Source: a virus (lineage: Duplodnaviria > Caudoviricetes). Taken from it: a DNA stretch of 64,000 nucleotides. Positions within the stretch are counted from its first letter, which is position 1. Each line of letters starts with the position of its first letter. The DNA lies in IMG/VR virus record IMGVR_UViG_3300014204_000154, positions 19,666 through 83,665 of that record; one strand, written 5' to 3'. Below the pieces are notes generated by a model. It searched no databases. It was not told the origin of the DNA and saw only the letters and a list, made by a program, of their open reading frames with translations. The translations under genes and the position numbers were made by a program. Positions 3,065-46,293 of the stretch are shown one piece after another.

Positions 3065-3076
3065 GTTTAAAACAAT

Positions 3077-3282: not shown

Positions 3283-3289
3283 CTGTTTC

Positions 3290-4645: not shown

Positions 4646-4816
4646 TTATACCCCGAACCACCGGAGGATCTTGATAAGCATGTTGAGTAAATCCAGAACT
4701 GTCTGGACTATGCCAACAATGACCAGATATGAAATGGCCATCTTGACACCAAACTCTTTCCAGGCAACCCACTTTCCCCGAACCTGCTTAAACTTCACTC
4801 TCAACTCAATCTTCAT
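4646..4816 (-). CDS. small membrane protein
   Basis: Start at MKIELR by ATGA overlap; one hydrophobic segment. Confidence 0.6.
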   Translation of the reverse strand: MKIELRVKFKQVRGKWVAWKEFGVKMAISYLVIVGIVQTVLDLLNMLIKILRWFGV

Positions 4817-27899: not shown

Positions 27900-27902
27900 T
27901 GA

Positions 27903-29111
27903 TTAATACCTCTTTTCACGATCCGTTTTGATAGCCGATTCAATTTCCAGCCAAGCCTCTTCCGCCCGATCCGCCAGAACGTCCTGAAGATGCTCCCTTT
28001 CAATCTTGGAAACCAAATCGGCTCTTTTATAACCGCCTCCAGCCTCTTCCAACTCCTTCTTGCTGAGATCGTCCCAATTGATTTTATCAACCTTTGGCCC
28101 ATAAAGATAGGCCAGACACGAAGAAATATCATCAACCCCGTAATCAAACAAAGCTTGAAATTCCGCTTCACGAAACGGCTTGCCCACTTTGTTTCGCTCA
28201 ATCCGGGCAAGAACACGAACACCATGCGGCCTTTTCTCCCCCCGGAATTGTGTTATCATCTTTTCCTGTTCGTATAGCCACGCAACAACATGGGTATAGA
28301 AATTGAGCGCCTTGCCACCATTCCGTTTATACTTCTTTCCATATGTGACGCCAATCGCTTCCCGAATCTGAGAAACGATCATAAGCGTGACATCCTTCCC
28401 AGACATGCGATCACAGATATTGTCAAAGAATGAATCGCTCAAATATTTCGCTTTTTCCGCTCCCGCTCCATAAGATCCTTCTTCTGCCTTATCGGTTTTT
28501 GCCGCCTTATCAAACCGTTCCTTTGCTTCTTCGGTCGAAGTCGCATCCAAAGAGTCCAAGATATAAAGCAACAACTCTCCCGGTTTATTGGCATCCAATG
28601 CCCTCGTAAACCGGCGACCAAACTGTTCCACCGTTCTTGACCGGACCCATTCAACAACGCGATTCGGATCAACTGGAATATTGGGGTTTATCTTCCCATC
28701 ATACCCATTGGCAAACTGTTCCCCGTACATCTCTGGCACTGGAAAGTCCATCACCCCCTCAACGTTGTCGTAAATGATCCTGATTTTCTTGACCCGCGGA
28801 AAATTGCGGGAGACTGATCCCATCATCTTGTAAAATACCCTTGCCGCCAATTCCAACATCAACAACGTCTTTCCGCTTGAACCGTCTCCAACAACATTTG
28901 ATATCCGGCCTCTGGGCCATCCACCCCTTCGACCCATACCGGAAATTGCCAAATTGATCATCGTACAACCGGAATGGAGAAAATCAATAACAGAATCAAC
29001 AATTGCTCCGCAAACCCCCTTGCGTTCTTCAATAATTTCCTTCGCAGGTTCCGGCCGTGATTCCTCCGCATGAAAAACTCCAACGCCGCCGCCATCCCGA
29101 TTGATTTTCAT
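27903..29111 (-). CDS. recA: RecA/UvsX-like recombinase
   Basis: GDGSSGKT, ILDSL, SQIR, GGKALNFY, RNKVGKPFRE. Confidence 0.9.
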   Translation of the reverse strand: MKINRDGGGVGVFHAEESRPEPAKEIIEERKGVCGAIVDSVIDFLHSGCTMINLAISGMGRRGGWPRGRISNVVGDGSSGKTLLMLELAARVFYKMMGSVSRNFPRVKKIRIIYDNVEGVMDFPVPEMYGEQFANGYDGKINPNIPVDPNRVVEWVRSRTVEQFGRRFTRALDANKPGELLLYILDSLDATSTEEAKERFDKAAKTDKAEEGSYGAGAEKAKYLSDSFFDNICDRMSGKDVTLMIVSQIREAIGVTYGKKYKRNGGKALNFYTHVVAWLYEQEKMITQFRGEKRPHGVRVLARIERNKVGKPFREAEFQALFDYGVDDISSCLAYLYGPKVDKINWDDLSKKELEEAGGGYKRADLVSKIEREHLQDVLADRAEEAWLEIESAIKTDREKRY

Positions 29112-31110: not shown

Positions 31111-32034
31111 TTATTTTTGAGGAAGATTCGATAACATATAACACGCATATGTTATCCCACTTTTCCCACTAAATGACGGCAACCTTAAAAACTCCTCCAA
31201 TATCAATGCCGCCATGTCGTCTTTTTTCCCATTTACAAGGATGGCGGCCACATATCCTTGAACCCCCATTCTGATTTTCTCCGCATCGTCAGTGAGTGAT
31301 CTTACAATCGCCGCTGTTTCCTTCCACGGCTTTCTGTTCAACAACGATTGAATCAGATCCTTTGTAACATGGCTCACGGCGGATCGAATCAATGAAATTG
31401 CTTCATCGTCATTTTCGATCCCGCGCACCGTATCCATAGTGACCAGGATTTCCCTTGGGATTCCTTCACATGAATCGATGATTGCTTGGCGAACAGCGGG
31501 AGATAGCCGGAACCCTTCCTCATGACAAACCATTTTGATCAAAAAGGCTTGATCAATAACGGTCAATGGCGCAACTTCATAAACCTTGGCGCGGCTCTTA
31601 ACCGTAGTTGGAACCTTGTTGAGATCTGTTGTACACAAGGCAAAATAGCAAAACTCAGGCGGATTTTCCAATGTCTTGAGAAGAGAATCTGCCGCCGCAC
31701 CAGAGAGACGATGACATTCGTCAATAATGTACATCTTATTTTTTCCATGAAGCGGATAACTTTGCGCAGCCTCCTTAATGGATCTGGCATTATCGACTCC
31801 GGTGTTGTCAGCAGCATCAATTTCCATCAAATCTAACCCTTTGGCGCCAACGCTATCCCCAATCAACCGGGCAATGGTGGTTTTCCCACACCCTCTCGGT
31901 CCACAAAGCAGGAACGTCCTTGTGCGGGGAATTGCTGGGACAAGAGACTTTTTCAAGACCTCATTGCCAATCAAATCATCAAACGTTGCCGGCCGATACT
32001 TCAAGTGAAGCTCAACTCTCTTCTCCTCTGTCAT
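31111..32034 (-). CDS. dnaX: DNA Pol III gamma/tau-like clamp loader
   Basis: KYRPATFDDLIG, GPRGCGKTT, IIDECH, LLKTLENPP, SR. Confidence 0.92.
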   Translation of the reverse strand: MTEEKRVELHLKYRPATFDDLIGNEVLKKSLVPAIPRTRTFLLCGPRGCGKTTIARLIGDSVGAKGLDLMEIDAADNTGVDNARSIKEAAQSYPLHGKNKMYIIDECHRLSGAAADSLLKTLENPPEFCYFALCTTDLNKVPTTVKSRAKVYEVAPLTVIDQAFLIKMVCHEEGFRLSPAVRQAIIDSCEGIPREILVTMDTVRGIENDDEAISLIRSAVSHVTKDLIQSLLNRKPWKETAAIVRSLTDDAEKIRMGVQGYVAAILVNGKKDDMAALILEEFLRLPSFSGKSGITYACYMLSNLPQK

Positions 32035-35000
32035 CTCAATCCTCCTATTGAATTAATCTTATCAGCAAAATTCCGTATACCCTCTTGAAATAATTTCTTA
32101 TTTTCTGGATTCCTTAAAACGGAAGACGGATGAAGACCCCAGCAAACCCACACTCCCTTGGAAGGTATCCATTCCGTTGTGCCACACAATTTCGTGATGC
32201 CGCCATCCTCGTTCTTGAAATACTTCAAAGCGACATTACCCAAAGCCAGACACAACCTCGTTCCGGTATTCTTGATTTCTTCGTCAAGCCATCGGGAACA
32301 GGCAGCAATATGGATATCCTTTGGAGTCCTTGTTATACTTGGGAAGCATTTAACCACATTCGTAACATGAAACTGCCTTCGCGTGAGACCATAGATGAAC
32401 AACGTCTCCCAAAGAAGATCGCCAGAGCGCCCAACAAACCCTTTCCCTTCAAGGTCTTCATTACTTCCCGGCGCTTCCCCGACAATCATTGCGTTGTAAA
32501 TACCCATCGAAGGAAGCACCGGCTGTCTGGCTTCCCCCCTCAAGGCGCAATCCTTACAATAAAGCAATTCGACATCTCTCCAGCGTCTCTGAAGCACAAA
32601 GCATTCCCGGTCCTGCGGCTTTCCGATAATCGAAACGATATCAAATGAAAAATATTTGGCCAAATCGCCAGTCGGTTCAGATCCGTCTAAACCGACCTCT
32701 TTGATGATTTTATCCATCTTGACAGAATGTTTCACCGGCTCAAGATCGCCCAAGCTAAATGCCCTTTCATCCTTGACTCTATATTGAGCATAATCCCCAG
32801 CAGTTTTGTCTCCTATGCCTTTGATTTCTACAAATGGGACATATATGTTGCCGTCTCTGGAAATCCATTGTTTGGCATCAGAAATCCCAAGCCGGGGCAA
32901 GATAACTTTCAACCCTCTTCGAAGCGCCTCTTTCACCAAATCGTCTTTCTTGTCATCCTTCCCTAATGTAAGGTTGGCACAGATGAATTCGGCCGGGAAA
33001 AATAGTTTCAAAAAGGCGCACCAATAGGCAATTATGGAATACTCAACTGAATGAGATTTATTGAAGGAATATCTCGCATGATTCTGAAGGGCTTCCCAAA
33101 ATTCTATGGCTTCCTGCTCGTTAAACGTCTTCTGTTCCAAACATCCGTTAATGAATGCTTCTTCGTATGGCTTGAACTCCTTCGCATCCCTCTTCTTTCC
33201 AATAACCTTCCGGATCTTATCTGCTGTCGAATAAGGCAACCCTGCCACCAGATTGATCACCTGCATCACTTGTTCTTGATAAACGACGATTCCATATGTA
33301 TTCTTTGTAATATTTTCATAAATCCGATTCTTCTTCTGCCATTTCGCTCCATGCTTCCTCTTAACATAATCATCAGTGAGACCACTATCCGATGGCCCCG
33401 GACGAACCAAAGCAATGACATCGCTCATCAACCCGAAATTTTCAATCCCAACCTGTTTTACAAGCTTGGTGGTCGAATATGTATTGAATTGAAAAACTCC
33501 TTCAGTTTCTCCTTTTGAGAGCATTTCAAATACTTGAGGGTTATCCAAGGAAATATGATCGAAATCAATTTCTTTTCCATGGTTTTTCAAAATCAATCGC
33601 CGACTCTCATTTAAAATTGAAAGAGTATTAAGACCAAGAGCGTCAAGCTTCATCAAGCCCATATATTCTGCGTCATCTTTTGCCCAATTGATAACATCCT
33701 GGTCTGATCTGATCGCAAGATTTCCTCTAGTCCCCAAAGTCAAATCTTCTGCAGAAACTATAATTGCTGCAGCATGCTGCGAATATCCTCGAATTTGGCC
33801 CTCAAGCCGAACAGCATAATCAACGACATTTGGATACTTATCAACAAACGGATGGCGTTGTTCTTCAATCGATTGTTGAACAGAATTGTTATCATTACCT
33901 TCGTCTTCAATAATTTTGACAAATTCATTTACTTCTGAAATCGGGACATCGAAAACCCGCGAAACATCCCTAACAATCCCCCTCCCCTTCATTCTTTGAA
34001 AAGTCGTAACCGATGCAATATGATTCTTCCCATACAATTCCTCAAGATGCTGCCGAACCAATGGCCGTTTAACATCTTCGAAGTCAATATCAATATCTGG
34101 CAACCCTTGCCTTTCCTCGTCAATAAATCGAGAGAAGAGAAGGTCATACTTAATTGGATCGGCAACCCTAGTTATCCCCATCAAATAAGCAATCAAACTG
34201 CCCCCAACCGATCCGCGGCCAGGTCCTACGAAAATGTCATTTTCTTTACACCATAATATCAACTCGTGGATTAAAAGGAAATAACGGATGAATTTTTTCT
34301 TCTTGATCAATTCAAACTCTTCCCAGAAACGATCCAGATATTTTTGATCCCATTCGGAAGATCCGAACAGCCGTTCATAGCCTTCAAAACATAACTTCTT
34401 CAAAAAATCTGGTTCTTGATCCTCTGGAACTGATTTAAGTGTTGGCAACCAAATGCTCTTTTCTTGAATAAAAAAAGACGAACACTTTTCAGCAATTGCC
34501 ATTGCGTTCCGCATTGCCAAAAGATACTGACCCCTTAACAATACTCCTTGAGCAGCAAAAGCGTCCTTCATTTCCTGCTCGGATCGAAGGAAAAGACCTT
34601 GGATTTTGAATTTGAAACGGTCCTCCTCATTCCATGTTTTCTTGGTCTGAATCGCCAACAAGACCTCTTGAAGATCACTATCGCCTTCATCAACATAATG
34701 GCAATCATTGGTAGCCACCATCTCTATTCCATATGTTTCATGAATCGAAACGCAAAATTGATTAACAGACAATTGATCCGGGAATGAATGCGGCATAACT
34801 TCCAGATAAACGTCGCCTGGGATCTTCTCATTCAATCGAAGAATAAAGTTATATCCAGACTTATCCAACAATGGCGTGGCCGCACAGCCGGAGAGGAAAA
34901 CAAGACCGTCACAATGATCCAGAATGAAATTGAAATCCGCTCTTGGCCTTGAATAGAATCCTTTCAAATTTGCCACAGTAAGAATCTGACAAAGGTTCTG

Positions 35001-35285
35001 GAATCCTTTCTCATCCTTGATTAACGCCGTAACATGAAAGCGGTGATCAGAAGGAATCTTAACAACCATATCCGGAACAACATATAATTCACAACCATAT
35101 ATCGGAGTTATCCCGGCCTTCTTCGACTCTGATTGAAAATTCAACAACCCGTCTATATTGGCGTGATTGGTAAGAGCCAAATGGGTTTGCCCCAATTCCT
35201 TGGCCCTTTTCAGATATTGATCCGCTTTTCCAACGCCATCAAGGATAGAATACTCATTGTGGACGTGAAGATGGCAAAATGACAT
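32031..35285 (-). CDS. dnaE: DNA polymerase III alpha fused to C-terminal family-4 uracil-DNA glycosylase
   Basis: PHP HLHVH/TNH; GPGRGS; PDIDIDF; KLDALGL; YSFNKSH; then CKDC.L...VGEAPG..E..EGKGFVG.SG...NVVKC...C...HPS. Confidence 0.95.
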   Translation of the reverse strand: MSFCHLHVHNEYSILDGVGKADQYLKRAKELGQTHLALTNHANIDGLLNFQSESKKAGITPIYGCELYVVPDMVVKIPSDHRFHVTALIKDEKGFQNLCQILTVANLKGFYSRPRADFNFILDHCDGLVFLSGCAATPLLDKSGYNFILRLNEKIPGDVYLEVMPHSFPDQLSVNQFCVSIHETYGIEMVATNDCHYVDEGDSDLQEVLLAIQTKKTWNEEDRFKFKIQGLFLRSEQEMKDAFAAQGVLLRGQYLLAMRNAMAIAEKCSSFFIQEKSIWLPTLKSVPEDQEPDFLKKLCFEGYERLFGSSEWDQKYLDRFWEEFELIKKKKFIRYFLLIHELILWCKENDIFVGPGRGSVGGSLIAYLMGITRVADPIKYDLLFSRFIDEERQGLPDIDIDFEDVKRPLVRQHLEELYGKNHIASVTTFQRMKGRGIVRDVSRVFDVPISEVNEFVKIIEDEGNDNNSVQQSIEEQRHPFVDKYPNVVDYAVRLEGQIRGYSQHAAAIIVSAEDLTLGTRGNLAIRSDQDVINWAKDDAEYMGLMKLDALGLNTLSILNESRRLILKNHGKEIDFDHISLDNPQVFEMLSKGETEGVFQFNTYSTTKLVKQVGIENFGLMSDVIALVRPGPSDSGLTDDYVKRKHGAKWQKKNRIYENITKNTYGIVVYQEQVMQVINLVAGLPYSTADKIRKVIGKKRDAKEFKPYEEAFINGCLEQKTFNEQEAIEFWEALQNHARYSFNKSHSVEYSIIAYWCAFLKLFFPAEFICANLTLGKDDKKDDLVKEALRRGLKVILPRLGISDAKQWISRDGNIYVPFVEIKGIGDKTAGDYAQYRVKDERAFSLGDLEPVKHSVKMDKIIKEVGLDGSEPTGDLAKYFSFDIVSIIGKPQDRECFVLQRRWRDVELLYCKDCALRGEARQPVLPSMGIYNAMIVGEAPGSNEDLEGKGFVGRSGDLLWETLFIYGLTRRQFHVTNVVKCFPSITRTPKDIHIAACSRWLDEEIKNTGTRLCLALGNVALKYFKNEDGGITKLCGTTEWIPSKGVWVCWGLHPSSVLRNPENKKLFQEGIRNFADKINSIGGLR

Positions 35286-35314: not shown

Positions 35315-36364
35315 CTATTTGACCAGCGCGATGACTCCGGCAAACTTGCCCGACTTGAAAAGAAGATAACGGTCATCCTTGGGATAATACTCCCGGCCTT
35401 GGGATAGGATGTTCATCAGAAAATTCGGATTGACCTTTAAGGAAGCTCCGGGAGGAAACGACCACTTGTCACTCTTGAGGAATTTCTCATTGATTTCTCC
35501 AAACTGCCGTTCTCCGTGAATAATCAAATTCCCCTTGGGATCAAGCGACAACAAAACAAACTCTCCCCCGTTTTCCCCGGCAGAGGAAAGGACAGCGGCC
35601 CGATCCAACGATTTGATCATGTCTTCCGGAAAAAGAAATGGCGCCCCCAACCCATCAAAATTGAGAAGGTTCTTGATTCCCTCCCTTGGGAAATCGCCTT
35701 TCCTCTTCCGAACACTAAACAAAACTCCGTCTTGTGATCGGAAATGAAGCCAACCCTCAACGGACGAAAACGATTCCATGTTACCAAATTTCAAGATTTC
35801 GCCAACCGCCTTGATGGGCAAAATCGATTCGTCTTCAACCGGGATTGACATTTCGTAAAATCCTGCGCGGAACCCGTCCGTGGCCGCCAATCCATCCGGT
35901 CCAATTGACACGCCGCATCGCGCAGGGAATGCTGAATTGGTTGCCGCAAAGCCTTCTACCAATGCCAGCCCATTCGTGAAATCCGCTGGCAATTTGACCC
36001 ATTTAATGTCAGAGAGAGACAGGTTATCCACCATGGCAAGGATCGAAGCTGGATTTGACGACACCATCTTCAAAACCGTCTTCCCCCCGGAAACTTGAAT
36101 TTTGTTCTCATCAAGCAGCACAAGCCTGATTTCTTCCGTATCGATCTTGGAAACGATCTTGAAGAATTCGACTGCCCGAACAAGGCAACGGACCTCTGCC
36201 TTAAACGGTATCGAAACGGAAATGTCATCATTGAAGGTCTTGATCCATTCCGTATCGAACATGAAAGAATCCGCCCCTTCAAGCAATACATTCTTACTTT
36301 CCACTCCCGGCATAACCTTCTTCAACGCTTCCAGCAATTCAACCCTCTTCATAAACCCCTCCAT
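35315..36364 (-). CDS. dnaN: DNA Pol III beta sliding clamp-like protein
   Basis: 349 aa; LAATDGFRA, GDFP, NPNFL patterns; adjacent to dnaE. Confidence 0.8.
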   Translation of the reverse strand: MEGFMKRVELLEALKKVMPGVESKNVLLEGADSFMFDTEWIKTFNDDISVSIPFKAEVRCLVRAVEFFKIVSKIDTEEIRLVLLDENKIQVSGGKTVLKMVSSNPASILAMVDNLSLSDIKWVKLPADFTNGLALVEGFAATNSAFPARCGVSIGPDGLAATDGFRAGFYEMSIPVEDESILPIKAVGEILKFGNMESFSSVEGWLHFRSQDGVLFSVRKRKGDFPREGIKNLLNFDGLGAPFLFPEDMIKSLDRAAVLSSAGENGGEFVLLSLDPKGNLIIHGERQFGEINEKFLKSDKWSFPPGASLKVNPNFLMNILSQGREYYPKDDRYLLFKSGKFAGVIALVK

Positions 36365-37100
36365 TCGATGCCAAAGAAAAGACCTTGAAAACCCGGAATG
36401 GGCGCAACTTCATCTTAAAATGATAAAGATTGTCATCCCCCAAACAACCGCCATCGTTGACCAACTTATCGTCGCCAATATGGGTATAGAACAAAAGCCG
36501 CATATATTCGCTCAAGAATTGCCCCGGATAGCAAAAGCAATACCGATAATTCACAAATCTATGATTTGAATCCCAAATATTCACGCCATATATCGCGCCG
36601 TTCTGATCAACCAAAACCCAACGATTCTTCCCCGAATCGATATATTTCAAAATGACATCGGCATCCTGAACAATTCTTTCCCGACCTTCTAGCCAAGAAA
36701 CCATCAAGGCGCTCAAATCATCGGTGGGGGTGGCTTCTCTATACAGGAGGGTCAATTCAGGATGTCTAGCCGCAAATTTGCGCGAATTCTTGCGAAAAAC
36801 GGCAACGTCCCCTCCCGTCAAATTGCGGAACAACGCCGGCATATACAAAAAATTATAATCAAGAAACTCCCCGGAAGATAAACCCGGCAAGGAAGACCAA
36901 ACGGGAACTGAACAATGATGAACAATCCCCGTCTTCAATTCTATCGGCGGCAACATCAAGTGGCCTTCTGAATCGGAAACGTACACCGAACCGCCTGAAG
37001 TGTACGTTTCCCATCCAGCCGCTTCAAAATATTCTTCAGAGCACCAAAAATTCGGATCGATTCGAAAGCGCTCCAAAGTCTCAAGGTATTTATTTGTCAT
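36339..37100 (-). CDS. GNAT-fold protein resembling DUF2156 / aminoacyl-tRNA-dependent transferases
   Basis: C-terminal LVNDGGCLGDDNLYHFKMKLRP resembles the DUF2156 motif; start moved to MTNKYL. Confidence 0.5.
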   Translation of the reverse strand: MTNKYLETLERFRIDPNFWCSEEYFEAAGWETYTSGGSVYVSDSEGHLMLPPIELKTGIVHHCSVPVWSSLPGLSSGEFLDYNFLYMPALFRNLTGGDVAVFRKNSRKFAARHPELTLLYREATPTDDLSALMVSWLEGRERIVQDADVILKYIDSGKNRWVLVDQNGAIYGVNIWDSNHRFVNYRYCFCYPGQFLSEYMRLLFYTHIGDDKLVNDGGCLGDDNLYHFKMKLRPFRVFKVFSLASNGGVYEEG

Positions 37101-37218
37101 CAAGACCCAATCCCTTGTCTGCCGCCTTTTGCGTTGCGTTCTTACTGGCCTTGCCACTCTTGATCTTATCGATCAACTTCTTTGATATCGTTCCAGTTTT
37201 CCGACTCTTTCCGCCCAT
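37090..37218 (-). CDS. 42-aa Lys-rich peptide
   Basis: Not in track; MGGKSRKTGTISKKLIDKIKSGKASKNATQKAADKGLGLDDK; AAGGAGG SD; 3' end overlaps the GNAT start. Confidence 0.7.
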   Translation of the reverse strand: MGGKSRKTGTISKKLIDKIKSGKASKNATQKAADKGLGLDDK

Positions 37219-37236
37219 AATCACAATCCTCCTTAA

Positions 37237-38018
37237 TTATAATTTTAATCCTCTTGTAAGGATTTTCCATGCCAATTCAACCACTGATGGAATTTGCCCA
37301 TTGCCAATGGCTTTAATTCTGTCCAGTTTATCGGCCAATCCATCATCCATTCGGCAAAGCAAGGGTGAACATGTATATGCTTCTCTGGGCATTTTTGATG
37401 GTTCTTCAAATTCAATTCCATTCCAATTAAATAATGGGAAAGGCGGGTAGTCGATTGCCAAGTTTCTGTTGTCCGGATATTCCCATTGGCAAATTGAATC
37501 GCTTCTGAACTCATGACTGTAGGCAAGAATCCACAATCGTTTCCTCTCATGCGGTGCTCCAACATTATCCCCTCCCACAAGGCACCATCGACAATCATAC
37601 CCAATTGAGGAAATATCTGCAAGGATTCTTCCGAAATAAATGGTAGAGATGAGCCCTGAAACATTTTCCAAAAATGCAAATTTTGGTCGTATTTTCCCAA
37701 TAACCTCAAAAGTTTCAGGCCACATATTGCGACTATCCAATTCTTTTTTACGCTGCCCTGACATTGAGAATGGTTGACATGGGAATCCTCCTGAGACAAC
37801 ATCAACCAATCCCTTATAGCTGTCGGCGAACCCTTCATCAATGAATGTTTTGATATCGCTGAATATGGGAGCATCATCTAAAATACCATCCTGAATTCTT
37901 TGAGCAATTAATCTTTGACAAAAATCATTCCATTCAACATAACCTAATGTTTTCCAGCCCAACAATTTAGAACCAAGAAGACCGCCACCCCCCCAGAAAA
38001 CAAAGATAATTCCTTCAT
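37237..38018 (-). CDS. C5-cytosine DNA methyltransferase alpha subunit, frameshifted in a G7 tract
   Basis: ATG 38018 gives MKELSLFSG; G8 instead of G7 (37988-37994) restores LFSGGGGGLLG in frame with GGFPCQPFS, ENV, PHERKR, KAIGNG. Confidence 0.85.
37245..37877 (-). CDS. overlapping-frame beta polypeptide of the C5 methyltransferase (M.EcoHK31I-beta-like)
   Basis: Long alternative-frame ORF with KMFQ...GMIVDGALW...LEH, FLPT and motif IX-like HPCFAEWMMDWPINWT. Confidence 0.75.
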   Translation of the reverse strand: MMLPYSAISKHSLMKGSPTAIRDWLMLSQEDSHVNHSQCQGSVKKNWIVAICGLKLLRLLGKYDQNLHFWKMFQGSSLPFISEESLQIFPQLGMIVDGALWEGIMLEHRMRGNDCGFLPTVMSSEAIQFANGNIRTTETWQSTTRLSHYLIGMELNLKNHQKCPEKHIHVHPCFAEWMMDWPINWTELKPLAMGKFHQWLNWHGKSLQED

Positions 38019-38021
38019 TTT

Positions 38022-38729
38022 TTACTTTCCCAAAACTTCAATCCTGCCCAACTCATCAAAAAGACACCAACTTAACAGACCAGTCAAGTCGGTTGTCTTT
38101 CCCTTCACAATGAAATAATTTCCGCCCGGAACGAACGAAAAGGACAATTCCTGATCATAATTGAACAGAGCGTCCAAATCAACCGTCCGGATACCGATTG
38201 GCTCAAACCTCTCCAACTTCTCCTGAGACGCAAAATCAAGACCGCTGGCGTCATTTACAATTTCAATGATGGTTCCTGAAAAGATATCGCGCTGGACAAC
38301 CTTCAACCCGTTGTCCCAATGAATCTCCACATGGCTTAAATCATCCTGCAAGGCGCTCATAATCGCCTTCCGGAGAGTAAATCTTGAAGTCGCCTTCTTC
38401 CGGGCATAACGATAATACAACCGAAATATTTCATCAAAGGAAAGCGACTTACTTGACCCACACTTCTTCTTCCGAACATAGCCGTCTTGAACCGTCTTGA
38501 AAACAATTGAATCCCCTTCAACGTAAAAATTCGCCGAATCATAATCATTGGCGTCAAAAATGACGGTTTCCTTAAACGCGGCGCTTGTCTCCGGAAGGGC
38601 AAACCTCAACAGAATCGTCCTATCAGAATTGATAACCAAAACGTCACGCTCATTGCAAAGAATGGTGTTTCTCATCCTTCCACTCTGGTCAAGCGCCGCC
38701 GCATATGAAAAAATTTCTTCCCTGTCCAC
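38022..38729 (-). CDS. hypothetical protein
   Basis: 235 aa; GGAGG SD. Confidence 0.75.
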   Translation of the reverse strand: MDREEIFSYAAALDQSGRMRNTILCNERDVLVINSDRTILLRFALPETSAAFKETVIFDANDYDSANFYVEGDSIVFKTVQDGYVRKKKCGSSKSLSFDEIFRLYYRYARKKATSRFTLRKAIMSALQDDLSHVEIHWDNGLKVVQRDIFSGTIIEIVNDASGLDFASQEKLERFEPIGIRTVDLDALFNYDQELSFSFVPGGNYFIVKGKTTDLTGLLSWCLFDELGRIEVLGK

Positions 38730-38743
38730 TTTATTCCCTCCGT

Positions 38744-39427
38744 TTAATCAAATAGACCATTTTCTTCTTTACAGAACTTTTCGCATCCCAACCGTCCTGC
38801 TGCTCCGGCGCAATATTCCTCATCGATTTCAAAAGCATCCAACTTAAATCCCAAATCCCGACAAGCAATGGCGCTTGATCCACTACCCAAATGGGTATCG
38901 ATAATAGTATAACCCGGTTTTGCGTATTTCTTTAATAACCATTTATATAAAGCAACTGGTTTTTGCGTTGGATGAATTCTCTTTTCTTTGTTTTTCATAT
39001 CTCCTTGTAAAAAACCTTGCCAACGATATGAAAACATGCGAGTTGATGTATCAAAAGAAGTCCAAGCCAATTCGCAATCAGCAAAATTATTTTTTCCATT
39101 AACTTTATCCCATACAATAAAACAATTTGTGTTTCTTAAAAATTCTATAAAATAATTACCCCCAAAAACAATCTGATGTTTGCTTATCCGAAATAATTCA
39201 ACAAAAAAATCTCCTTTAGGAACTAAAGAATCCCAATTTTTATATTCAATGTCTCTTCTAACAGAAGCCAAGCTGTCAAATTGCATTTTATAAGCTGCTT
39301 GAAAATTTTCAACATATGGAGGATCGACAATTGCCAAATCATACTTCTTATCTGGCATCAATTTCATTTCTGGAAGACAATCGCAACAAAAGATTCTTAT
39401 GTCATCCTGTTCATAAAAAGGGTTCAA
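38744..39427 (-). CDS. DNA N6-adenine methyltransferase (beta class)
   Basis: VDPPY, HPTQKP, DTHLGSGSS. Confidence 0.92.
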   Translation of the reverse strand: MNPFYEQDDIRIFCCDCLPEMKLMPDKKYDLAIVDPPYVENFQAAYKMQFDSLASVRRDIEYKNWDSLVPKGDFFVELFRISKHQIVFGGNYFIEFLRNTNCFIVWDKVNGKNNFADCELAWTSFDTSTRMFSYRWQGFLQGDMKNKEKRIHPTQKPVALYKWLLKKYAKPGYTIIDTHLGSGSSAIACRDLGFKLDAFEIDEEYCAGAAGRLGCEKFCKEENGLFD

Positions 39428-40837
39428 TCAAACAACCCTCCTCAGCATTTCCTCTCGGAAATCGTATTTTGGATCATAGACCCAAACAAGGCCATCCCTA
39501 TCCTGCCCCACCGGCCGCAGACCTGCCGCCCAATCGATGGAAAATGAAGTGTCTCCCATAAGGTTCCAAAGATGCTTCACTTCATCCCGGAACGAATTGG
39601 ACAGAAACCCATTCCCCTCGTTGACCCACTTCTCAAAATCGCTCCACGCCGTCTTCGCTCCCTTCCGGCTCACGATAAAACGGATGGCGCTGGTGGTATT
39701 CCCTGAACAAAACTTGGCGCGGCCAAACAGATCGCTGACCGAACAACAAATATCATCGTCGTTGGTTGGAACGTTCCCGGCATCGAAGGTGGAACACTCG
39801 ATTCCACACTGCCGGAAATAATCCATATATTTCCCTAACAATAAAGACCCCAAAAATTGAGCCTTCGACATCATTTCATACATCCGTTCAAAGTCGTGAC
39901 CCAGACGGGCGAAACTGTTCTTGATCCCCGATCCCGCCGCTGAATAGGAATAACAGTCAAACGTCATATGGCGAATTCCGGCTTCAAGAATCTGCTCAAT
40001 ATAATCGTCCGTCATTCCCTTCTCGTCATTCAAGAAGACCATGAACGGTTCAATCCTTGCGACAACCCGGACACCAGCATCACAAAGATTTTTGCACCCA
40101 CGAATTCTCTCCTTGAAAGTCGGCGCTCCCGGCTCCAAACCTTTCAAGAAAGCTTCGTTGGATGAAATCATCGTAACGTGGACCGCCGCCCCTGCCCTAT
40201 TCCGGGCAAACGCTTTCACATATTCATCATCGCCAACAAGATCCGACTTCGTATTGACCATGATTGGATATTCGGCATCAGCAAGGAAATTCAGCATCTC
40301 CAGAGCTATCCTGTTTTTCGTCTCTATCGGCCGGACAAAATCCTCAAAGCGAATTCCCAGCCGCAATGGCATCTCCATTGCTATCGCCTTTGAAACGTCC
40401 GCCAGATCCTTCTTCGATCCCCGATGCTTGAACAACTCTGTCAATTCCTTCTTGAAGAAATCCGGAGAACAAACCCGCATCCCCATCCCCTTCGTATTGT
40501 CAAAAAAGGAAGAGTAAAGGCTGGCCCTGGCATAATCGGCGAAGCAATACCGGCAACGATACGGGCAAAGCTTGGAGTCATAGATGTCCAGATTTAATGA
40601 CATCGGACAAGCTTGAGACCTCAAGCTCACTTCGATAAATGATTGCATTTCCTCAAGATTCAAAAGGCGCTCTTTCTTGATCATTTCGCCTTTCTCAAGA
40701 TCAAACTGGAAATAATTCGACTTTCTCCCCTTCTCCTTAACGAGACTCTGCTTGTCCCGTTCTTCAACGAATACCGAAAGACGCGGAATTATTTTTGAAA
40801 CCAGCTTTCTCAATTCCCAATAATTCATGTTATTCAC
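39428..40837 (-). CDS. radical SAM enzyme (SPL-like family), paralog 1
   Basis: CPYRCRYC; VNTKS; LEPGAPT..ER; RIEPF. Confidence 0.9.
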   Translation of the reverse strand: MNNMNYWELRKLVSKIIPRLSVFVEERDKQSLVKEKGRKSNYFQFDLEKGEMIKKERLLNLEEMQSFIEVSLRSQACPMSLNLDIYDSKLCPYRCRYCFADYARASLYSSFFDNTKGMGMRVCSPDFFKKELTELFKHRGSKKDLADVSKAIAMEMPLRLGIRFEDFVRPIETKNRIALEMLNFLADAEYPIMVNTKSDLVGDDEYVKAFARNRAGAAVHVTMISSNEAFLKGLEPGAPTFKERIRGCKNLCDAGVRVVARIEPFMVFLNDEKGMTDDYIEQILEAGIRHMTFDCYSYSAAGSGIKNSFARLGHDFERMYEMMSKAQFLGSLLLGKYMDYFRQCGIECSTFDAGNVPTNDDDICCSVSDLFGRAKFCSGNTTSAIRFIVSRKGAKTAWSDFEKWVNEGNGFLSNSFRDEVKHLWNLMGDTSFSIDWAAGLRPVGQDRDGLVWVYDPKYDFREEMLRRVV

Positions 40838-40902
40838 GTGGCGGTCCTTTCACAAGATCGTCTAATGCAATAAAGTGGATTTGGATGCGGATGGGGAGGT
40901 TT

Positions 40903-41454
40903 TCATGGCTGCGCCGCCTCCAAAACTATATCGCTTTCTACCTCATTGCCCCACACATCCCATCCTTCAGTTTTCTGGCGAGCAAACAATTCGATACGAT
41001 TCCCGCATGGATATAAACTTTCGATCATCCTGCGAGCAATTATCGGCTTACGAGAATGGATAGTTGCTGCTTCTCTCAAAACAGTTGTATATTTCCCTCT
41101 TTGCTCAACCGCCACTGGAATAAACTTACCCTTGTAAAGCCAAAGTAAATATTCATGTGAATATCTTACTGTAAAACAAGGGGCAACTCCATTTTCCTTA
41201 TCCCATATAATCCGAGCATGAAGTCGATGCTGAGAGAAAAGTCTTTCCGCGTCCATTAGATATTTATCTATCGTCCAGAGAAAAAGAATATAATTGTCCT
41301 CAACGGGAACACTTTCAATAATGTTTTTAATGTCAGCGAGTTCTAACGTATTATAATCTAAACTTCTGCCTTGATGGGGCCTGCAATTCCTTAGTCCGCC
41401 TTTTTTTTGAACCCAAGGAGGATCAGCATAAATTACTTGATATTTTTTATTCAA
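40903..41454 (-). CDS. MT-A70 family adenine methyltransferase
   Basis: YADPPW, LFLW, HSRKP, IELFAR...GW..WGNE. Confidence 0.92.
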   Translation of the reverse strand: MNKKYQVIYADPPWVQKKGGLRNCRPHQGRSLDYNTLELADIKNIIESVPVEDNYILFLWTIDKYLMDAERLFSQHRLHARIIWDKENGVAPCFTVRYSHEYLLWLYKGKFIPVAVEQRGKYTTVLREAATIHSRKPIIARRMIESLYPCGNRIELFARQKTEGWDVWGNEVESDIVLEAAQP

Positions 41455-41616
41455 TTTACTCCTCCAATCCCGCGTTACTTACCTTGCCAAATCCAAGCAG
41501 GCCGATCAACAGCAGCATCTCGATCTCGGGGCATGCCGCATTCGTCGCAAACCTCGATGCCGCCACCATCGGGCCAATCTTCGTTGTGAGTTTTCAAATG
41601 GCCGCATTTATCCATA

Positions 41617-42429
41617 TCACGCTCCTATATTCCAAAAAAGGATTGGCCCCTCAAGACTGTTTTTGTTTTGCTTTAACCAAGACCATGCTTTCAAATCGTA
41701 ATACGGATTGCAAGGGAATGGACACCCCGTCACAACTCTATCCGTGTATTCATATCCCATATCAATTAGTTTGAAATCCGGATCGTCCAATAAATAACCG
41801 GCCGCACCAACAATCTTCTCTCTTTTCTTGTTTTGTTGACAAGATTCTCTACAAAGAACCCCTCTAACTTTTATATTATACCCCTTTTCTCGGATTCCTC
41901 TTAAAACTCCTGCCGCCATCGTTCCAGAACCAATACACATAACTATCGTCTGGAATCTATCCACGTTTGAGCACTTGACTTCCTTTGCAACCTCAACAAC
42001 CGTCTCCAATAGCGGAAGACCCAATGGCAATAAGACAGCCTTGGGCCCAAATTCCTCCGCAAGAGCGTTCCGGCTGATATAATAATTCACCTTCGCCATA
42101 CCGGCCTTGACGTTCCTGATCTCAGCGCCGAATTCAATCCACTTGCTTTTATGATATTCAAGAACCTCGTGTGACTCTTTATAGACAGGGTTGTAAATAA
42201 CGGCCGTCATGCCCAATTCTCTGGCTATGGCGCAAATGCCAATGCCTGCCATAGAAATCGATGTTTCTGTATATCCAACAACAGTCACCCCTTCCCTCTT
42301 TAATTTCTGAAGATGTTTCTCCAATCCTCTTACCTTAGCAAAAGGAGGAAGAGGAGGAAGTGCACATAAATCTTCCCTTTTAACGTAAATCCCGTCATAT
42401 TCCTCGATTGGAGTGTTATTTATTATCAT
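41617..42429 (-). CDS. PLP-dependent enzyme, fold type II (TrpB/ACC-deaminase-like phage family)
   Basis: TPIE...YVKREDL...AKVRG, IGSGTMAAG, YYDLKAW, LFWNIG. Confidence 0.85.
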   Translation of the reverse strand: MIINNTPIEEYDGIYVKREDLCALPPLPPFAKVRGLEKHLQKLKREGVTVVGYTETSISMAGIGICAIARELGMTAVIYNPVYKESHEVLEYHKSKWIEFGAEIRNVKAGMAKVNYYISRNALAEEFGPKAVLLPLGLPLLETVVEVAKEVKCSNVDRFQTIVMCIGSGTMAAGVLRGIREKGYNIKVRGVLCRESCQQNKKREKIVGAAGYLLDDPDFKLIDMGYEYTDRVVTGCPFPCNPYYDLKAWSWLKQNKNSLEGPILFWNIGA

Positions 42430-42986
42430 TCGTTAACCGCCTTTGATGTCTTTCTTCGCTTTTGGGCAGCAAATTTAAGTTTATTGACATGTTCCTCAGA
42501 AAGCTTCTTCCCTTTCCAAAACGATCCTCCTCCGGGATGTCTCGCATGGTTTCTTCTATATACATCATCCTGCCATAATTTCTTAGTCAATGCGCTTTGC
42601 TTCTCTCGTTCACCATCATTTTCATATCTTCTCAACGTAACAATCCTTGCTTTCTCTGATTGAGATTTTCTCATACTTTCAGTCCAATTAATTATTCCCA
42701 ATCCTCCTTCCACCATATTATATCCATTAGGAACAATGGAATTGTTTTCTTTGATATAATCTCGTTCCAACTCTCCAGCTTCCTCCGGAGTCAATCCACT
42801 ATGCAATAAAACCATATAGAAATTATTGATGCCGTATTTCCGAATAGAACTATGAAGGGCATACAAACTTCCAGATTTAACTTTATCCAAATGAGCCTTC
42901 CAACGACTCTTAATTGATTGGCTAGTAACGCCAAAATACTTTTTATGATTTATATTATTTTCAATAACATAAACAATATACTTCAT
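42426..42986 (-). mobile_element. free-standing GIY-YIG homing endonuclease with NUMOD3-like tail
   Basis: YIVYVIEN..NHKKYFGVT...RW..H...E...NGYN; KGKKLSEEH. Confidence 0.85.
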
Positions 42987-44029
42987 AATAGTCCGCAATC
43001 CTTTAGCGAATACATATCTGGTTCCTTGCCATCAAAAACTCTTCTGCCCTGTTCAAGATCGCCGATCCCATCCCAACTCGATTGAAAGACCTCTTCCCGG
43101 TCTTCCCCCGCTAAGATCCGCCGTTTAAAATTGATCAAATTGAATGTAGTGGGATTTGGCACCGTAACGCCGCAACAGGTGTTTGTTGATTCCCTATACA
43201 GACCGGAGTTAACAAAGTCAGGACAGCCCAAAACGATGCCATATTTCTTGGCAATCTCGATAAGCTGAACCAAGATCGGTTTCCAATATTGATCCCGGTT
43301 ATGAAACCAAATCTTCTCAATATCAATCCCGATCCCATGGAGGCGCTTAGCAACGAAGTCGTTGAAGTGAAAATTGTAGGTGTTATAATTCAAGATCCCA
43401 TGGGATTTTAGCCGACGCATTAAGGATCGGAATTGAGCCACGGTATGATACCCTGGAATGAAAGGTTCTCCGTTGACTCCCACCCTAACGCCGTTGCTCT
43501 TCAAAAGCAATATGTGAACAATCCGATCCTCAACCGGAGTCGTGCACCGCCGTTCTAATACCTCCCAATCGCTTTCCGCTCCCGGAGATATAATTGGCTG
43601 GACAATGCAAAGATCCTTCATCCGGACGATATCATCAAAATAATCCATCATGACTTCGGTGAACATGGTCTGAATCAAAAACGACCACCGATGCCCCTCA
43701 AGAATTTTCAAGACCTCTCCGGATACGCGGTGAATCCGCTCCGCTGATTGAAACGGATCTGCTTTGTTGCCAAACCGAATTGTCTTCTTATGATGCAGCG
43801 CCCAAGCCAGAGAGGATCGCGGATTTTTGTTTTTCAACCCGTTTGACAATGTTCTTGAAAAGGATTCGATATCCAGAGGCTTCAAATCGTACCCCCAGAT
43901 GTGATTAAGACGGCGAAGATAGCAATGAAGGCAATCCGCCTCGCAATTGCCATATGAATCAAGAGAAAATGACAATGGACAATAAATGGAATCGCCCCTG
44001 ATTGTTAAGCCTTGTTTCAATCTTTCCAA
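42983..44029 (-). CDS. radical SAM enzyme (SPL-like family), paralog 2
   Basis: CEADCLHC; RFGNKADPF; VNGEPFIPG. Confidence 0.9.
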   Translation of the reverse strand: MERLKQGLTIRGDSIYCPLSFSLDSYGNCEADCLHCYLRRLNHIWGYDLKPLDIESFSRTLSNGLKNKNPRSSLAWALHHKKTIRFGNKADPFQSAERIHRVSGEVLKILEGHRWSFLIQTMFTEVMMDYFDDIVRMKDLCIVQPIISPGAESDWEVLERRCTTPVEDRIVHILLLKSNGVRVGVNGEPFIPGYHTVAQFRSLMRRLKSHGILNYNTYNFHFNDFVAKRLHGIGIDIEKIWFHNRDQYWKPILVQLIEIAKKYGIVLGCPDFVNSGLYRESTNTCCGVTVPNPTTFNLINFKRRILAGEDREEVFQSSWDGIGDLEQGRRVFDGKEPDMYSLKDCGLL

Positions 44030-44113: not shown

Positions 44114-44653
44114 TTACTTGCGGGTGATTTTCCCATCGGCGATGGCGAAAAGGTCGAACGCTTCCACGGCCGCCAGGACTGTCTTCATGGCCCAAGCCGC
44201 CTCTTTCTCATTGGCCTTGCCGCCCTCTTTGGCGTACTCCGCATCTGCCGCCTTGATGAGATCTGTCACCGTTTCGCCCTTGGCCTTGGCAAGAATGGAT
44301 GCGGAAATGAAAAGCCGCCCCTTCTTCTTCTCCTTCGGCTCTTTGGGCGCGGACGGCGTCTTGGTCTTGGCCGCCCCGCCCTTCTTGGTGCCCGCGGCGG
44401 GTGCGGCCGGCGCTTCATCCGGCACGGTGATCTTCTGATAATACTCGGCCGCGGCATCCGGTCCCGTCCACGTTCCGTCCTCGGCATCGGGAATGGCCTG
44501 GACCGCCCCGATGAACAGGTTGACCAGATCCTCCTTCGACTTCCCGACTGCGACGATCTTGTCCGGAAGCTTCCCGCTGTCGTTGATGGCCTTGATTGCT
44601 GCGGATAATTCCTTGAACTTGATGTCCTCGATTTTGATGATCTTCACTGCCAT
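44114..44653 (-). CDS. Lys/Ala-rich putative nucleoid-associated protein
   Basis: APAAGTKKGGAAKTKTPSAPKEPKEKKK linker; strongly GC3-biased; own promoter and terminator; start moved to MAVKII. Confidence 0.75.
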   Translation of the reverse strand: MAVKIIKIEDIKFKELSAAIKAINDSGKLPDKIVAVGKSKEDLVNLFIGAVQAIPDAEDGTWTGPDAAAEYYQKITVPDEAPAAPAAGTKKGGAAKTKTPSAPKEPKEKKKGRLFISASILAKAKGETVTDLIKAADAEYAKEGGKANEKEAAWAMKTVLAAVEAFDLFAIADGKITRK

Positions 44654-44728
44654 GATACTCACCTTTTCCTTTCTATTTTTCATCTCCGGTTTATTTTTGG
44701 AACCCCTTTTCCTTTGCTCTTGAAACCT

Positions 44729-44775: not shown

Positions 44776-46293
44776 TCAAATTATTTTTATCCATTGATCC
44801 TCTAGGAACGGTTGGCCCAACGCAAGTGATTGTAAAACCATCACTTCTCCCAAAAATGTAAACTCCTCGTGACGATGTGCAATGGTGCTTATTCTTGACA
44901 CCCCCTGATCTTTTTCCTCCGGAGTCTGATTCACACCGAACAATTCATCGACATGGGCCAATTTCCTAATATCTTCAGCTGTATCCTCTTGTTCTAAGCT
45001 TTTTTTGCTGATTGATTTTCGGTTGCTCTGAAGAACCGTCGCCATTAAAGCGTGCCTTCGGGAAGCCAGACCCTTCCCACGTTTCCAAACATAGTCTGCG
45101 ACTCCGCGCTCAGAAAAACCACTTGTCCCCGATCCCGGCGCTGAGATATCGAAATAATCATGAGCAATAACGTCGCTCACGAACCCTTCCCGATCTTCCA
45201 GCTCATCAAGATCCCTTTCACAATCATCAAATGAAGCGGAGAAAGCCGGATAGGACATCACCCGGAAATTATCACCGTAAAGGGTTTTAAAATGCTTCAC
45301 CTTCCGGGCAACCGAAGCGGAATCAAAATCTTTTGTCTGATGCATCGGCAACCACCAAGTCGCCAAAACATAATTATTCTCGGATTTCCCACGGCAAACC
45401 TGACACGGACGATACCCTTTTATGATCTTAAATTCTGGGGTCTTTCCTCCCGGCGCTTTGATTCCAATGCTACATGCGCGTTCATCTTTCCGGCAAGACC
45501 CGTCCTGATTTCTCTGACAATCAAACACTGGATATTTATGATCACCTGCAAAAGAGGCAAGTGCCGCGATCCGTTTATATATCCGCTTTGATATTGCAAT
45601 TTTATTCATCTCCAACGAGAATAAGGAAACCTTCAACCCGGCCATCAAAGCATAAATAGCCAATTCCTGAAGCCAAAAGCTCTTTCCTCTTTTCATGGGA
45701 GCCATAAAGGCCACAAGCCAATCCCGTTCAAAATATCCAGCCATATCTCCCAGAGCGCCGGGAAACCGAAAGAGACGGTTTGTTTCATTTTCAGAAAAGA
45801 CCTGATTCACATTTGCAACATCAAGCGGATTGAACCATTGACTCGTATCTTTTGAAATCCGGCTATAACTCCTTGCAGCTTCTTCGGCCTCATCAATCCG
45901 CCCTCTGGCCAATTCCCCCTTTATCCGGTCTGCCAACATATCAAGATTTCTCTCCCGGATATAATCACGGGATTGGTCAACAAGATAGGGGGTGGCTTTG
46001 TCGCTGTTATCGGATAACTGCTGAAGGAATTCCCGGACCAGATCAGCCTCTGCTTCCTTGAGACTTTCCTGTTCCGTCATGAATATGTTCCGGATCTCAT
46101 TCCCTGGCGCCTTTTTGTAAAGGCGATAATAATCTTCAACCCATTGAAAAACAGTCCTTGCAAAATCGATCTTGAAGTGATGCTTCTTGGCCATCTTGAT
46201 AAGCTGGCTGCAATAATTGTCATCAACAATCGCTCCGGTGATTATTCGTTTCTCAATATCTCCGCTTACAACGTGCCTTCGAATTGAAGCCAT
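44776..46293 (-). CDS. dnaB: DnaB-like replicative helicase
   Basis: APMKRGKS Walker A variant, LFSLEM, HDYFD, LQSNR, AEDI. Confidence 0.85.
   Translation of the reverse strand: MASIRRHVVSGDIEKRIITGAIVDDNYCSQLIKMAKKHHFKIDFARTVFQWVEDYYRLYKKAPGNEIRNIFMTEQESLKEAEADLVREFLQQLSDNSDKATPYLVDQSRDYIRERNLDMLADRIKGELARGRIDEAEEAARSYSRISKDTSQWFNPLDVANVNQVFSENETNRLFRFPGALGDMAGYFERDWLVAFMAPMKRGKSFWLQELAIYALMAGLKVSLFSLEMNKIAISKRIYKRIAALASFAGDHKYPVFDCQRNQDGSCRKDERACSIGIKAPGGKTPEFKIIKGYRPCQVCRGKSENNYVLATWWLPMHQTKDFDSASVARKVKHFKTLYGDNFRVMSYPAFSASFDDCERDLDELEDREGFVSDVIAHDYFDISAPGSGTSGFSERGVADYVWKRGKGLASRRHALMATVLQSNRKSISKKSLEQEDTAEDIRKLAHVDELFGVNQTPEEKDQGVSRISTIAHRHEEFTFLGEVMVLQSLALGQPFLEDQWIKII

Follow-up and report, generated by a model that had tools for sequence, protein, structure and literature searches.

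A radical SAM cassette in a phage replisome operon as a candidate DNA hypermodification system without known hydroxymethyl-uracil enzymes

Layout and conservation of the cassette

The 64,000-nucleotide stretch of viral DNA studied here (the window) comprises bases 19666-83665 of an 83.7-kb IMG/VR virus record with a CheckV completeness of 94%. Between the genes for a DnaB-like helicase and a DnaN-like processivity factor it carries a cassette that encodes two radical S-adenosylmethionine (rSAM) enzymes, rSAM-A and rSAM-B, a pyridoxal phosphate (PLP) enzyme, a 235-amino-acid (aa) protein of predicted sliding-clamp fold (below, the clamp), a 42-aa peptide and a predicted tandem-GNAT transferase of 253 aa (Table 1). 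The cassette probably builds an amino-acid-derived DNA base modification without the known 5-hydroxymethyl-uracil (hmU) enzymes; the chemical steps, the DNA target, the amino acid and the binding to the clamp are what we infer from the comparisons below. A preliminary description of this DNA had placed the genes between dnaB and dnaN/dnaE, and the flanks agree with it (phrog_19 on one side, phrog_947 and a DnaE fused to a uracil-DNA glycosylase (UDG) domain on the other). All genes lie where it had mapped them, on the minus strand like every gene in the region, with transcription running from DnaB toward the clamp loader, and its Lys-rich peptide is a real, conserved gene.

The cassette is found in a widespread group of uncultured phages. 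Related loci were collected with the transferase as seed (80 viral loci) and with rSAM-A as seed (79 new loci besides one shared with the first set), and all were mapped by tblastn; single loci are given below by L numbers. The order rSAM-B (or an rSAM-B-like gene), a variable slot, rSAM-A, clamp and transferase was found in 97 of the 100 locus records that span DnaB to DnaN, and the other three held the transferase alone. After dereplication at 90% transferase identity, 77 lineages remained, with rSAM-A present in 72, the clamp in 74 and a gene of the rSAM-B class in 68; truncated contigs account for several of the absences. Of the rSAM-A-seeded loci, 68 extend 2.5 kb or more downstream, and every one of them carries the transferase; in most loci a DnaN-like gene lies directly downstream of the transferase gene. 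The order of the cassette is kept despite a switch of the polymerase from DnaE-UDG to UDG(-exonuclease) plus PolA and despite replisome identities down to 25-30%. The preliminary description had proposed gene-neighbourhood co-occurrence as a check, and the genes do co-occur in other phages far beyond chance.

Each of the four internal junctions of the cassette holds one insert in this phage (window 37237-44029), namely a GIY-YIG endonuclease, an MT-A70 methyltransferase, an N6/N4 methyltransferase and a C5 methyltransferase. The C5, MT-A70 and GIY-YIG genes occur in none of the first 80 related loci, and homologues of the N6/N4 methyltransferase were seen in a few loci only, mostly at other positions. 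The three methyltransferases and the endonuclease are lineage-specific insertions, not core genes; the methyltransferases that the preliminary description had counted as part of the system are thus present (PF00145, PF01555, PF05063) but do not belong to it. The called C5 methyltransferase open reading frame (ORF) aligns to its Pfam model only from position 27 and motif I is absent from it (window 37965-38020).

DNA near-identical to the window was found in a landfill metagenome, the probable source, and in an independent groundwater metagenome (Logan contigs), while none was found among phage records. The junctions of the cassette, including that of the GIY-YIG gene, recur with 100% identity in the contigs of the groundwater metagenome. 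Other methyltransferase joints in metagenome contigs had short sides and low likeness and were treated as belonging to methyltransferases of other organisms.

Predicted functions of the cassette proteins

The PLP enzyme aligns over its full length with gp52 of phage M6 (38.6% identity, E 9e-56). Its K32 aligns with gp52 K36, the proposed Schiff-base Lys, and the SGT loop is conserved. In a tblastn search of phage records it gave 67 matches, all in cultured phages, with M6-like Pseudomonas and Bordetella phages on top. The fold-II assignment of the preliminary description (PF00291, phrog_7093 over the full length) was upheld, and by its sequence the enzyme belongs to the M6 gp52 clade. In M6, gp52 decarboxylates Calpha-glycinyl-thymidine in DNA, in the pathway to 5-(2-aminoethyl)uracil (PMC8989533).

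The PLP gene, present in 37 of the 77 lineages, occupies a slot between rSAM-B and rSAM-A whose content varies. In relatives the slot holds the PLP gene, nothing, or an aldo-keto reductase gene (PF00248); further contents are a DAO-like flavin adenine dinucleotide (FAD) enzyme, always together with the reductase, a weak FtsJ-like methyltransferase, and a DUF362 protein with a variant rSAM. The FAD enzyme was found in the slot of four related loci (L043, L054, L065 and L087) and resembles, at 28% identity and E 6e-30, an ORF between the genes for an amino acid:DNA transferase (ADDT) and a kinase in Pseudomonas phage Ab20. In PaMx11 this position belongs to the gp47 flavin lyase (PMC8989533). 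The slot thus holds enzymes that are predicted to act on a free alpha-amino acid group, and two of the slot contents come from DNA thymidine pathways. Other DNA-modification genes are also found in the slot, namely methyltransferases here and a TET-associated glycosyltransferase in L045. In relatives rSAM-B adjoins the PLP gene directly, and the GIY-YIG gene between them is an insertion.

The two rSAM enzymes share the CxxxCxxC motif and 20% identity over 311 aa (E 7e-8), by which they are real but distant paralogues. The preliminary description had spoken of clearly paralogous enzymes flanking the PLP gene; the relation holds, but it is distant, and the GIY-YIG and MT-A70 genes intervene. rSAM-A is the most conserved enzyme of the cassette, with more than 120 positions conserved at 93% or above in 43 orthologues. 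Its conserved cysteines are C77, C91, C95, C98, C123, C364 and C365, and those of rSAM-B, in 38 orthologues, are C17, C29, C33, C36, C269, C285 and C286. In each family there are thus conserved cysteines beyond those of the SAM cluster, which fits a second Fe-S cluster as reportedly present in M6 gp53.

Against NCBIfam, all the rSAMs, including a third paralogue found in some relatives, gave sub-threshold matches to the PA0069/Rv2578c models (48-60 bits against cut-offs of 360-430), families of the COG1533-type 'DNA repair photolyase' clade; TIGR03886, a model of the spore photoproduct lyase (SPL) family, was matched by the third rSAM only. rSAM-A and rSAM-B are putative radical SAM enzymes of the SPL clade. 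rSAM-B is 21% identical to M6 gp53 (E 1e-5), and the rSAM-A profile matches gp53 in hhalign with 77% probability and E 2e-5 over 214 columns. Both are thus, to judge by these alignments, distantly related to gp53, and we make no claim of orthology. Together with the gp52-like PLP enzyme, this bears out the link to the M6 enzymes drawn in the preliminary description. SPASM and RRE domains were not detected on the rSAMs, Pfam giving only PF04055, above its cut-off, on rSAM-A and nothing on rSAM-B. rSAM-A is essentially a viral gene: it occurs in only 5 contigs of metagenome-assembled genomes among 185,579 species genomes. Protein-atlas look-ups gave only viral radical SAM clusters, and a tblastn search of phage records with rSAM-A gave one weak match.

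rSAM-A is hit by mobile elements the way DnaB, DnaE or ribonucleotide reductase are. It is interrupted by inserts of 0.4-2 kb in L064, L068-L070, L073, L080, L084, L087, L019, L022 and L033; the insert in L070 is an intein with Hint/Intein_splicing domains, and others hold a GIY-YIG gene or a 381-aa ORF with no assignment. In some relatives (L004 8895-9140 and 10779-12493; L008, L063, L073, L081 and L082) a Cys-rich 81-aa protein is encoded after rSAM-A, and between their transferase and DnaN genes the same relatives also encode an 85-aa protein and the third SPL-like rSAM, of about 486 aa.

The 253-aa protein itself has no Pfam match even at E<=10, PF09924 included. It has 119 metagenomic homologues, and PF09924 (LPG_synthase_C/DUF2156) is matched by 16 of the 31 aligned family members, with a best E of 1e-6. 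The family profile matches PDB entry 2hqy, a soluble DUF2156 protein of B. thetaiotaomicron, and a basic R-x-N helix motif is common to both. The AlphaFold2 (AF2) model (pLDDT 92) has 2hqy as its top Foldseek match as well (E 2e-8, TM 0.72), followed by the C-domains of MprF, L-PGS/A-PGS, the tRNA-dependent peptide synthases Sbb17/Sba18, and FemX; entries 4v36, 5vrv and 4v35 are among the top matches, and N-myristoyl transferases and Ate1 are also among its fold neighbours. The PF09924 matches in the family and the 2hqy/MprF fold show that the GNAT/DUF2156 assignment made in the preliminary description was right at the level of family and fold, and we predict that the protein is an aminoacyl-tRNA-dependent transferase. 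No longer fused forms of it were found among the homologues, which is weak evidence.

In L045 a TET-associated glycosyltransferase gene (4710-5855; PF20691, E 5e-40) lies in the slot beside a lone transferase gene, and the Pfam families Tet_JBP and thymidylate synthase are absent from the L045 (60-kb) and L057 records; the presence of this glycosyltransferase suggests that the transferase may have a simpler stand-alone activity on DNA. In L026 (5188-5943), and also in L021-L025 and L071, a ThyX gene (PF02511, E 3e-47) follows the transferase gene directly. Downstream of the transferase gene in L085 are a Vut_1/YhhQ-type transporter gene (1758-2450; PF02592, E 2e-51) and a 319-aa ORF (2588-3547) that is DpdA-like by eye and has no Pfam match, a hint that the island also contains a 7-deazaguanine module.

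The sliding-clamp fold had been missed in the preliminary description. The 235-aa protein has 49 homologues and no match in Pfam or PHROG, and its profile found nothing among PDB sequences either. The AF2 model (pLDDT 84) matches PCNA and the beta clamp in Foldseek (E ~1e-8), VIA-align superposed about 205 residues on Rad9 (Z 15.8) and on PCNA (Z 15.1), and the viral neighbours in BFVD are phage sliding clamps. On this structural modelling the protein is predicted to be a dedicated two-domain sliding clamp (PCNA/9-1-1/beta-clamp fold) and not an enzyme, and because a DnaN-like clamp is already encoded it would be the second clamp of the phage. The gene is lost together with the rSAM genes in L045 and L057/L058; a 206-aa ORF before the transferase gene in L057 was compared as a divergent clamp copy, and the comparison was not significant. 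rSAM-B ends here in ...YSLKDCGLL, while its orthologues end in a conserved ...YTLKDAGL(L) or in an added KGLLF/GFFL. We read the GLL/GLF/GFF-type tails, which rSAM-B and the peptide both carry, as putative clamp-binding motifs.

The 42-aa peptide (MGGKSRKTGTISKKLIDKIKSGK...GLGLDDK) has a gene with a strong Shine-Dalgarno sequence that overlaps the transferase start by 11 nt. By a strict proximity filter, at least 69 of the 80 loci have this ORF behind the clamp gene, in 53 distinct sequences; in the L021 group the copy lies further from the transferase. Among 41 aligned members no variation was seen at residues M1, G2, G3, K4, S5, R6, K7, G9 or L15, and the invariant N-terminus is followed by a variable Lys-rich linker and a hydrophobic C-terminal tail, usually GLL, GLF, GFF, PLF or GLDL. 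A peptide profile searched against 1.84 billion proteins gave 306 cluster representatives. The 150 matches listed all stand alone, at lengths of 40-73 aa, and in nearly all of them the motif begins at residue 1-4; two distant matches again lie between a clamp gene and a transferase gene. Between the peptide and transferase genes of L044 (9572-9991) and L056 (9547-9987), an inserted gene encodes a DNA-binding protein of the HU family whose N-terminal tail is rich in Lys and Ala.

The conservation of the peptide brings in the main alternative, in which the cassette modifies this peptide or another protein and not DNA. The transferase would aminoacylate the N-terminus at the amine of Gly2, at Lys4 or Lys7, or at Ser5, just as peptides are the substrates of FemX, L/F-transferase and Ate1. 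The rSAM and PLP enzymes would then remodel the residue, and the product would have its role at the replisome or in countering a host defence. The peptide gene lies directly upstream of the transferase gene and its N-terminus does not vary; loci that lack the rSAMs have no peptide, and peptide-acting enzymes (FemX, Sbb17/Sba18, N-myristoyl transferases and Ate1) are among the fold neighbours of the transferase. On the other hand, the rSAMs carry neither of the RiPP-type domains SPASM and RRE, the tailoring enzymes are homologous to enzymes that have so far been met in DNA thymidine pathways only, the cassette is part of the replisome operon and includes the clamp, and in the L033 and L021 groups the peptide gene comes after the clamp gene, not the transferase gene. 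Taken together, we regard protein modification with such a product as unlikely.

Table 1. Genes of the cassette and its surroundings, with positions in the window.
Feature	Position	Strand	Basis of assignment
DnaB-like replicative helicase, upstream border	44776-46293	-	phrog_19, E 1.6e-33
Lys/Ala-rich 189-aa protein, between DnaB and rSAM-B	44114-44683	-	no family match
rSAM-B, 348 aa, core	42983-44029	-	CEADCLHC motif, phrog_13321
GIY-YIG homing endonuclease, free-standing, insertion	42426-42998	-	PF01541, phrog_314
Fold-II PLP enzyme, 270 aa, variable slot	41617-42429	-	PF00291, phrog_7093 full length
MT-A70 DNA methyltransferase, insertion	40903-41454	-	PF05063, phrog_359
rSAM-A, 469 aa, core	39428-40837	-	PF04055 34.5 bits, CPYRCRYC motif, phrog_13321
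N6/N4 DNA methyltransferase, insertion	38744-39427	-	PF01555, phrog_23224
Two-domain sliding-clamp-fold protein, 235 aa, core	38022-38729	-	predicted fold; no Pfam/PHROG match
C5 cytosine DNA methyltransferase, truncated N-terminus, insertion	37237-37965	-	PF00145, phrog_363
42-aa MGGKSRK peptide, core	37090-37218	-	AAGGAGG Shine-Dalgarno, conserved ORF
DUF2156/LPG_synthase_C-like tandem-GNAT protein, 253 aa, core	36339-37100	-	family profile and predicted fold
DnaN-like processivity factor, 349 aa, downstream border	35315-36364	-	phrog_947, E 7e-25
DnaE fused to family-4 UDG domain	32031-35285	-	
Clamp loader	31111-32034	-	

The Lys/Ala-rich 189-aa protein encoded next to DnaB is 44% identical to the equivalent gene product in L004 and was found by tblastn in about nine loci, and is thus a neighbour often, not always, present. 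Downstream of the replisome genes (window 23877-29111) are genes for an SbcD-like phosphoesterase, an SbcC-like AAA_23 ATPase, a PDDEXK nuclease, a 5'-3' exonuclease and a RecA homologue. A family-4 UDG domain goes with the polymerase in every phage of the lineage, either as a C-terminal fusion to DnaE or as a UDG+exonuclease protein upstream of a separate PolA; examples are window 32031-35285, L004 13579-16830 and L006 12614-15722. This coupling may relate to an unusual pyrimidine in the DNA.

These surroundings, a replication and recombination module with RecA, the 5'-3' exonuclease and the SbcCD-like pair nearby, would also suit a role of the SPL-like rSAMs in DNA repair in anoxic hosts, with the clamp, peptide and transferase as replication factors and no programmed modification; the placement of the rSAMs in the COG1533 'DNA repair photolyase' clade points the same way. 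Repair leaves too much unexplained, namely the obligatory tRNA-dependent transferase fold, the changing set of amino-acid-tailoring enzymes in the slot (PLP decarboxylase, DAO-like FAD enzyme, aldo-keto reductase and methyltransferase) and the two to three paralogous rSAMs per phage, and we consider it very improbable.

Absence of hydroxymethyl-uracil genes and comparison with known systems

To our knowledge, all known thymidine hypermodification pathways start from hmU. A homologue of thymidylate synthase supplies this base ahead of replication, or else dioxygenases that need oxygen make it once the DNA has been replicated. In the 94%-complete genome, no match was found for thymidylate synthase/hmdUMP synthase (PF00303) at E<=1, nor for the 5-hmdU DNA kinase (PF18748, PF18723) or ADDT/aGPT-Pplase2 (PF18724) at E<=10, and ThyX (PF02511) and Tet_JBP (PF12851) are absent as well. 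The M6 proteins gp51, gp54, gp55 and gp58 had no match in the first 80 related loci, and the M6 ADDT, kinase and thymidylate synthase were not among the matched families of the 79 rSAM-A-seeded loci. The preliminary description had noted that no hmdUMP synthase, hmU kinase or aGPT-Pplase2 transferase is visible in the window, and their absence now extends to the genome and to about 150 related loci. The 253-aa and 235-aa proteins were considered as a divergent ADDT or kinase and showed no BLAST relation to M6 gp51, gp54 or gp55, so both readings were dropped.

The M6 pathway consists of the ADDT gp51, the PLP decarboxylase gp52, the rSAM isomerase gp53, the 5-hmdU DNA kinase gp54/55 and the hmdUMP synthase gp58 (PMC8989533). 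The cassette shares with it a full-length gp52 homologue with the catalytic Lys, SPL-like rSAMs that are distant relatives of gp53, nearby replication genes and a combinatorial set of tailoring enzymes. It differs in that it has no hmdUMP synthase, 5-hmdU kinase or ADDT and instead encodes a tandem GNAT, a second and sometimes a third rSAM, a clamp-fold protein and a peptide. As the entry genes of M6 are replaced, the precursor base and the amino-acid donor must differ from those of M6.

The enzymes could instead act before replication on free nucleotides or on a small molecule, yielding a modified deoxynucleoside triphosphate (dNTP) or a cofactor, with the clamp and the peptide as syntenic replisome accessories. 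Phages make many of their modified bases as nucleotides, the UDG domain on all polymerases of the lineage may point to an unusual pyrimidine pool, and in one subgroup a ThyX gene stands beside the transferase. Synthesis at the nucleotide level is nevertheless improbable: no nucleotide kinase, dNTPase or thymidylate-synthase-like gene was found in the genome, SPL-clade rSAMs of known function generally act on DNA, the clamp is lost along with the rSAMs, and gp52 and gp47 both act on the DNA polymer (PMC8989533).

For the transfer step the closest published precedent is Mom of phage Mu, a GNAT that moves glycine from Gly-tRNA to N6 of adenine in double-stranded DNA, after which a rearrangement takes place on the base (PMC13219725). 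Mom thus provides the example of a tRNA-dependent GNAT modifying DNA that the idea of the preliminary description calls for, and like the cassette transferase it belongs to the GNAT superfamily; it loads the tRNA-borne amino acid onto DNA after replication. Mom is, however, a single GNAT domain that acts alone, whereas the full cassette pairs an MprF/DUF2156-type tandem GNAT with rSAMs, a clamp and a peptide, and homology of the two families was rejected (hhalign probability 0.9%), so that they are unrelated in sequence. The best fold matches of the transferase are the C-domains of MprF and the aminoacyl-PG synthases together with 2hqy, and PF09924 is the sole Pfam family that its relatives match. 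Unlike MprF, the phage protein is soluble, has 253 aa and no flippase domain, and is encoded by a virus in a replisome operon; a lipid substrate is implausible.

The slot FAD enzyme of L043, L054, L065 and L087 is homologous to the enzyme in the position of the PaMx11 gp47 flavin lyase, which converts Nalpha-GlyT to 5-aminomethyl-dU. This FAD enzyme is not in the window, and the variants that have it pair it with an aldo-keto reductase, not with an acetyltransferase. Elp3 combines a radical SAM domain with a GNAT/KAT domain and adds a carboxymethyl group to C5 of tRNA U34, using acetyl-CoA. The cassette likewise combines radical SAM enzymes with a GNAT-fold module, and Elp3 is a precedent for a radical C-C bond at pyrimidine C5 from an activated acyl donor; it uses acetyl-CoA and acts on tRNA, and the likeness is one of logic. 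Phage 5mYOX dioxygenases make hmU after replication, some of them needing a ParB partner (PMC13229309). Post-replicative entry steps with a protein cofactor therefore exist, and the cassette would be their counterpart that works without oxygen. Full-text literature searches brought up no account of the cassette.

Proposed pathway and significance

The embedding of the cassette in the replisome operon, the clamp, the SPL-clade rSAMs and the tailoring enzymes of thymidine pathways are, taken together, best explained by post-replicative DNA hypermodification. On balance, we lean towards a system that is independent of hmU, is tethered to DNA by the clamp and draws on aminoacyl-tRNA. In the pathway that we propose, DNA would first be synthesized from ordinary dNTPs. 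One SPL-clade rSAM, held on the DNA by the clamp, would then activate a pyrimidine; since no source of hmU is encoded, we assume that the radical SAM enzyme activates the base directly. The C5-methyl group of thymine, which is the radical site in SPL chemistry, would be the favoured position. In the third step the DUF2156-type tandem GNAT would deliver an aminoacyl group from a charged tRNA in a Mom-like manner, and in the fourth the second rSAM, the distant gp53 relative, would form or rearrange the bond between base and amino acid so that the alpha-amine and the alpha-carboxylate stay free. The gp52-like PLP enzyme of this phage would finally decarboxylate that group to an aminoalkyl base. 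The 42-aa peptide would be an obligatory partner, perhaps a clamp-binding adaptor or an aminoacyl carrier. In its most specific form, namely an oxygen- and hmU-independent route in which a clamp-riding SPL-like rSAM functionalises thymine or another pyrimidine in the duplex and an MprF-type enzyme feeds in a tRNA-borne amino acid with the peptide as adaptor or carrier, the proposal is tentative and less likely true than not.

Several points weigh against DNA hypermodification by this route. A decarboxylase of the gp52 type requires a carboxyl group that would already be spent in acyl transfer from tRNA, so an extra step must be assumed; this could be an ester-to-amine rearrangement, or hydrolysis after C-C bond formation, following the logic of Elp3. 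The invariant N-terminus of the peptide, with its translational coupling to the transferase, fits a peptide substrate equally well, and the clamp-fold protein could be a mere part of the replisome. The rSAMs resemble SPL and M6 gp53 only weakly, with NCBIfam scores far under the cut-offs, and a PDB sequence search with rSAM-A, as a single sequence or as a profile, gave no match. In L045 and L057/L058 the transferase is present where rSAMs, clamp and peptide are missing, and it is thus able to work in another context. As a single broad phage lineage accounts for all the related loci, some of the synteny may reflect descent and not selection. Finally, the proposed modification is deduced from assembled contigs.

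What sets the cassette apart is that it has downstream tailoring enzymes of thymidine pathways but lacks every one of the entry steps. Its sources are landfill and groundwater samples, and if these are anoxic, as we assume, oxygen-dependent enzymes could not work there. If the proposed pathway is true, the cassette would be the anaerobic counterpart of the thymidylate synthase/kinase/ADDT and 5mYOX routes, with a new radical entry into DNA base chemistry and a second, unrelated use of charged tRNA for DNA modification. It would also be the first modification machinery with a sliding clamp of its own, and would reveal a conserved micro-protein of a kind that is often overlooked in gene calling. 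The five-gene core is small and found in many viral contigs, and new DNA chemistries matter both for restriction evasion and as enzyme tools. We conclude that the cassette probably belongs with phage DNA hypermodification and that its entry chemistry could prove categorically new.

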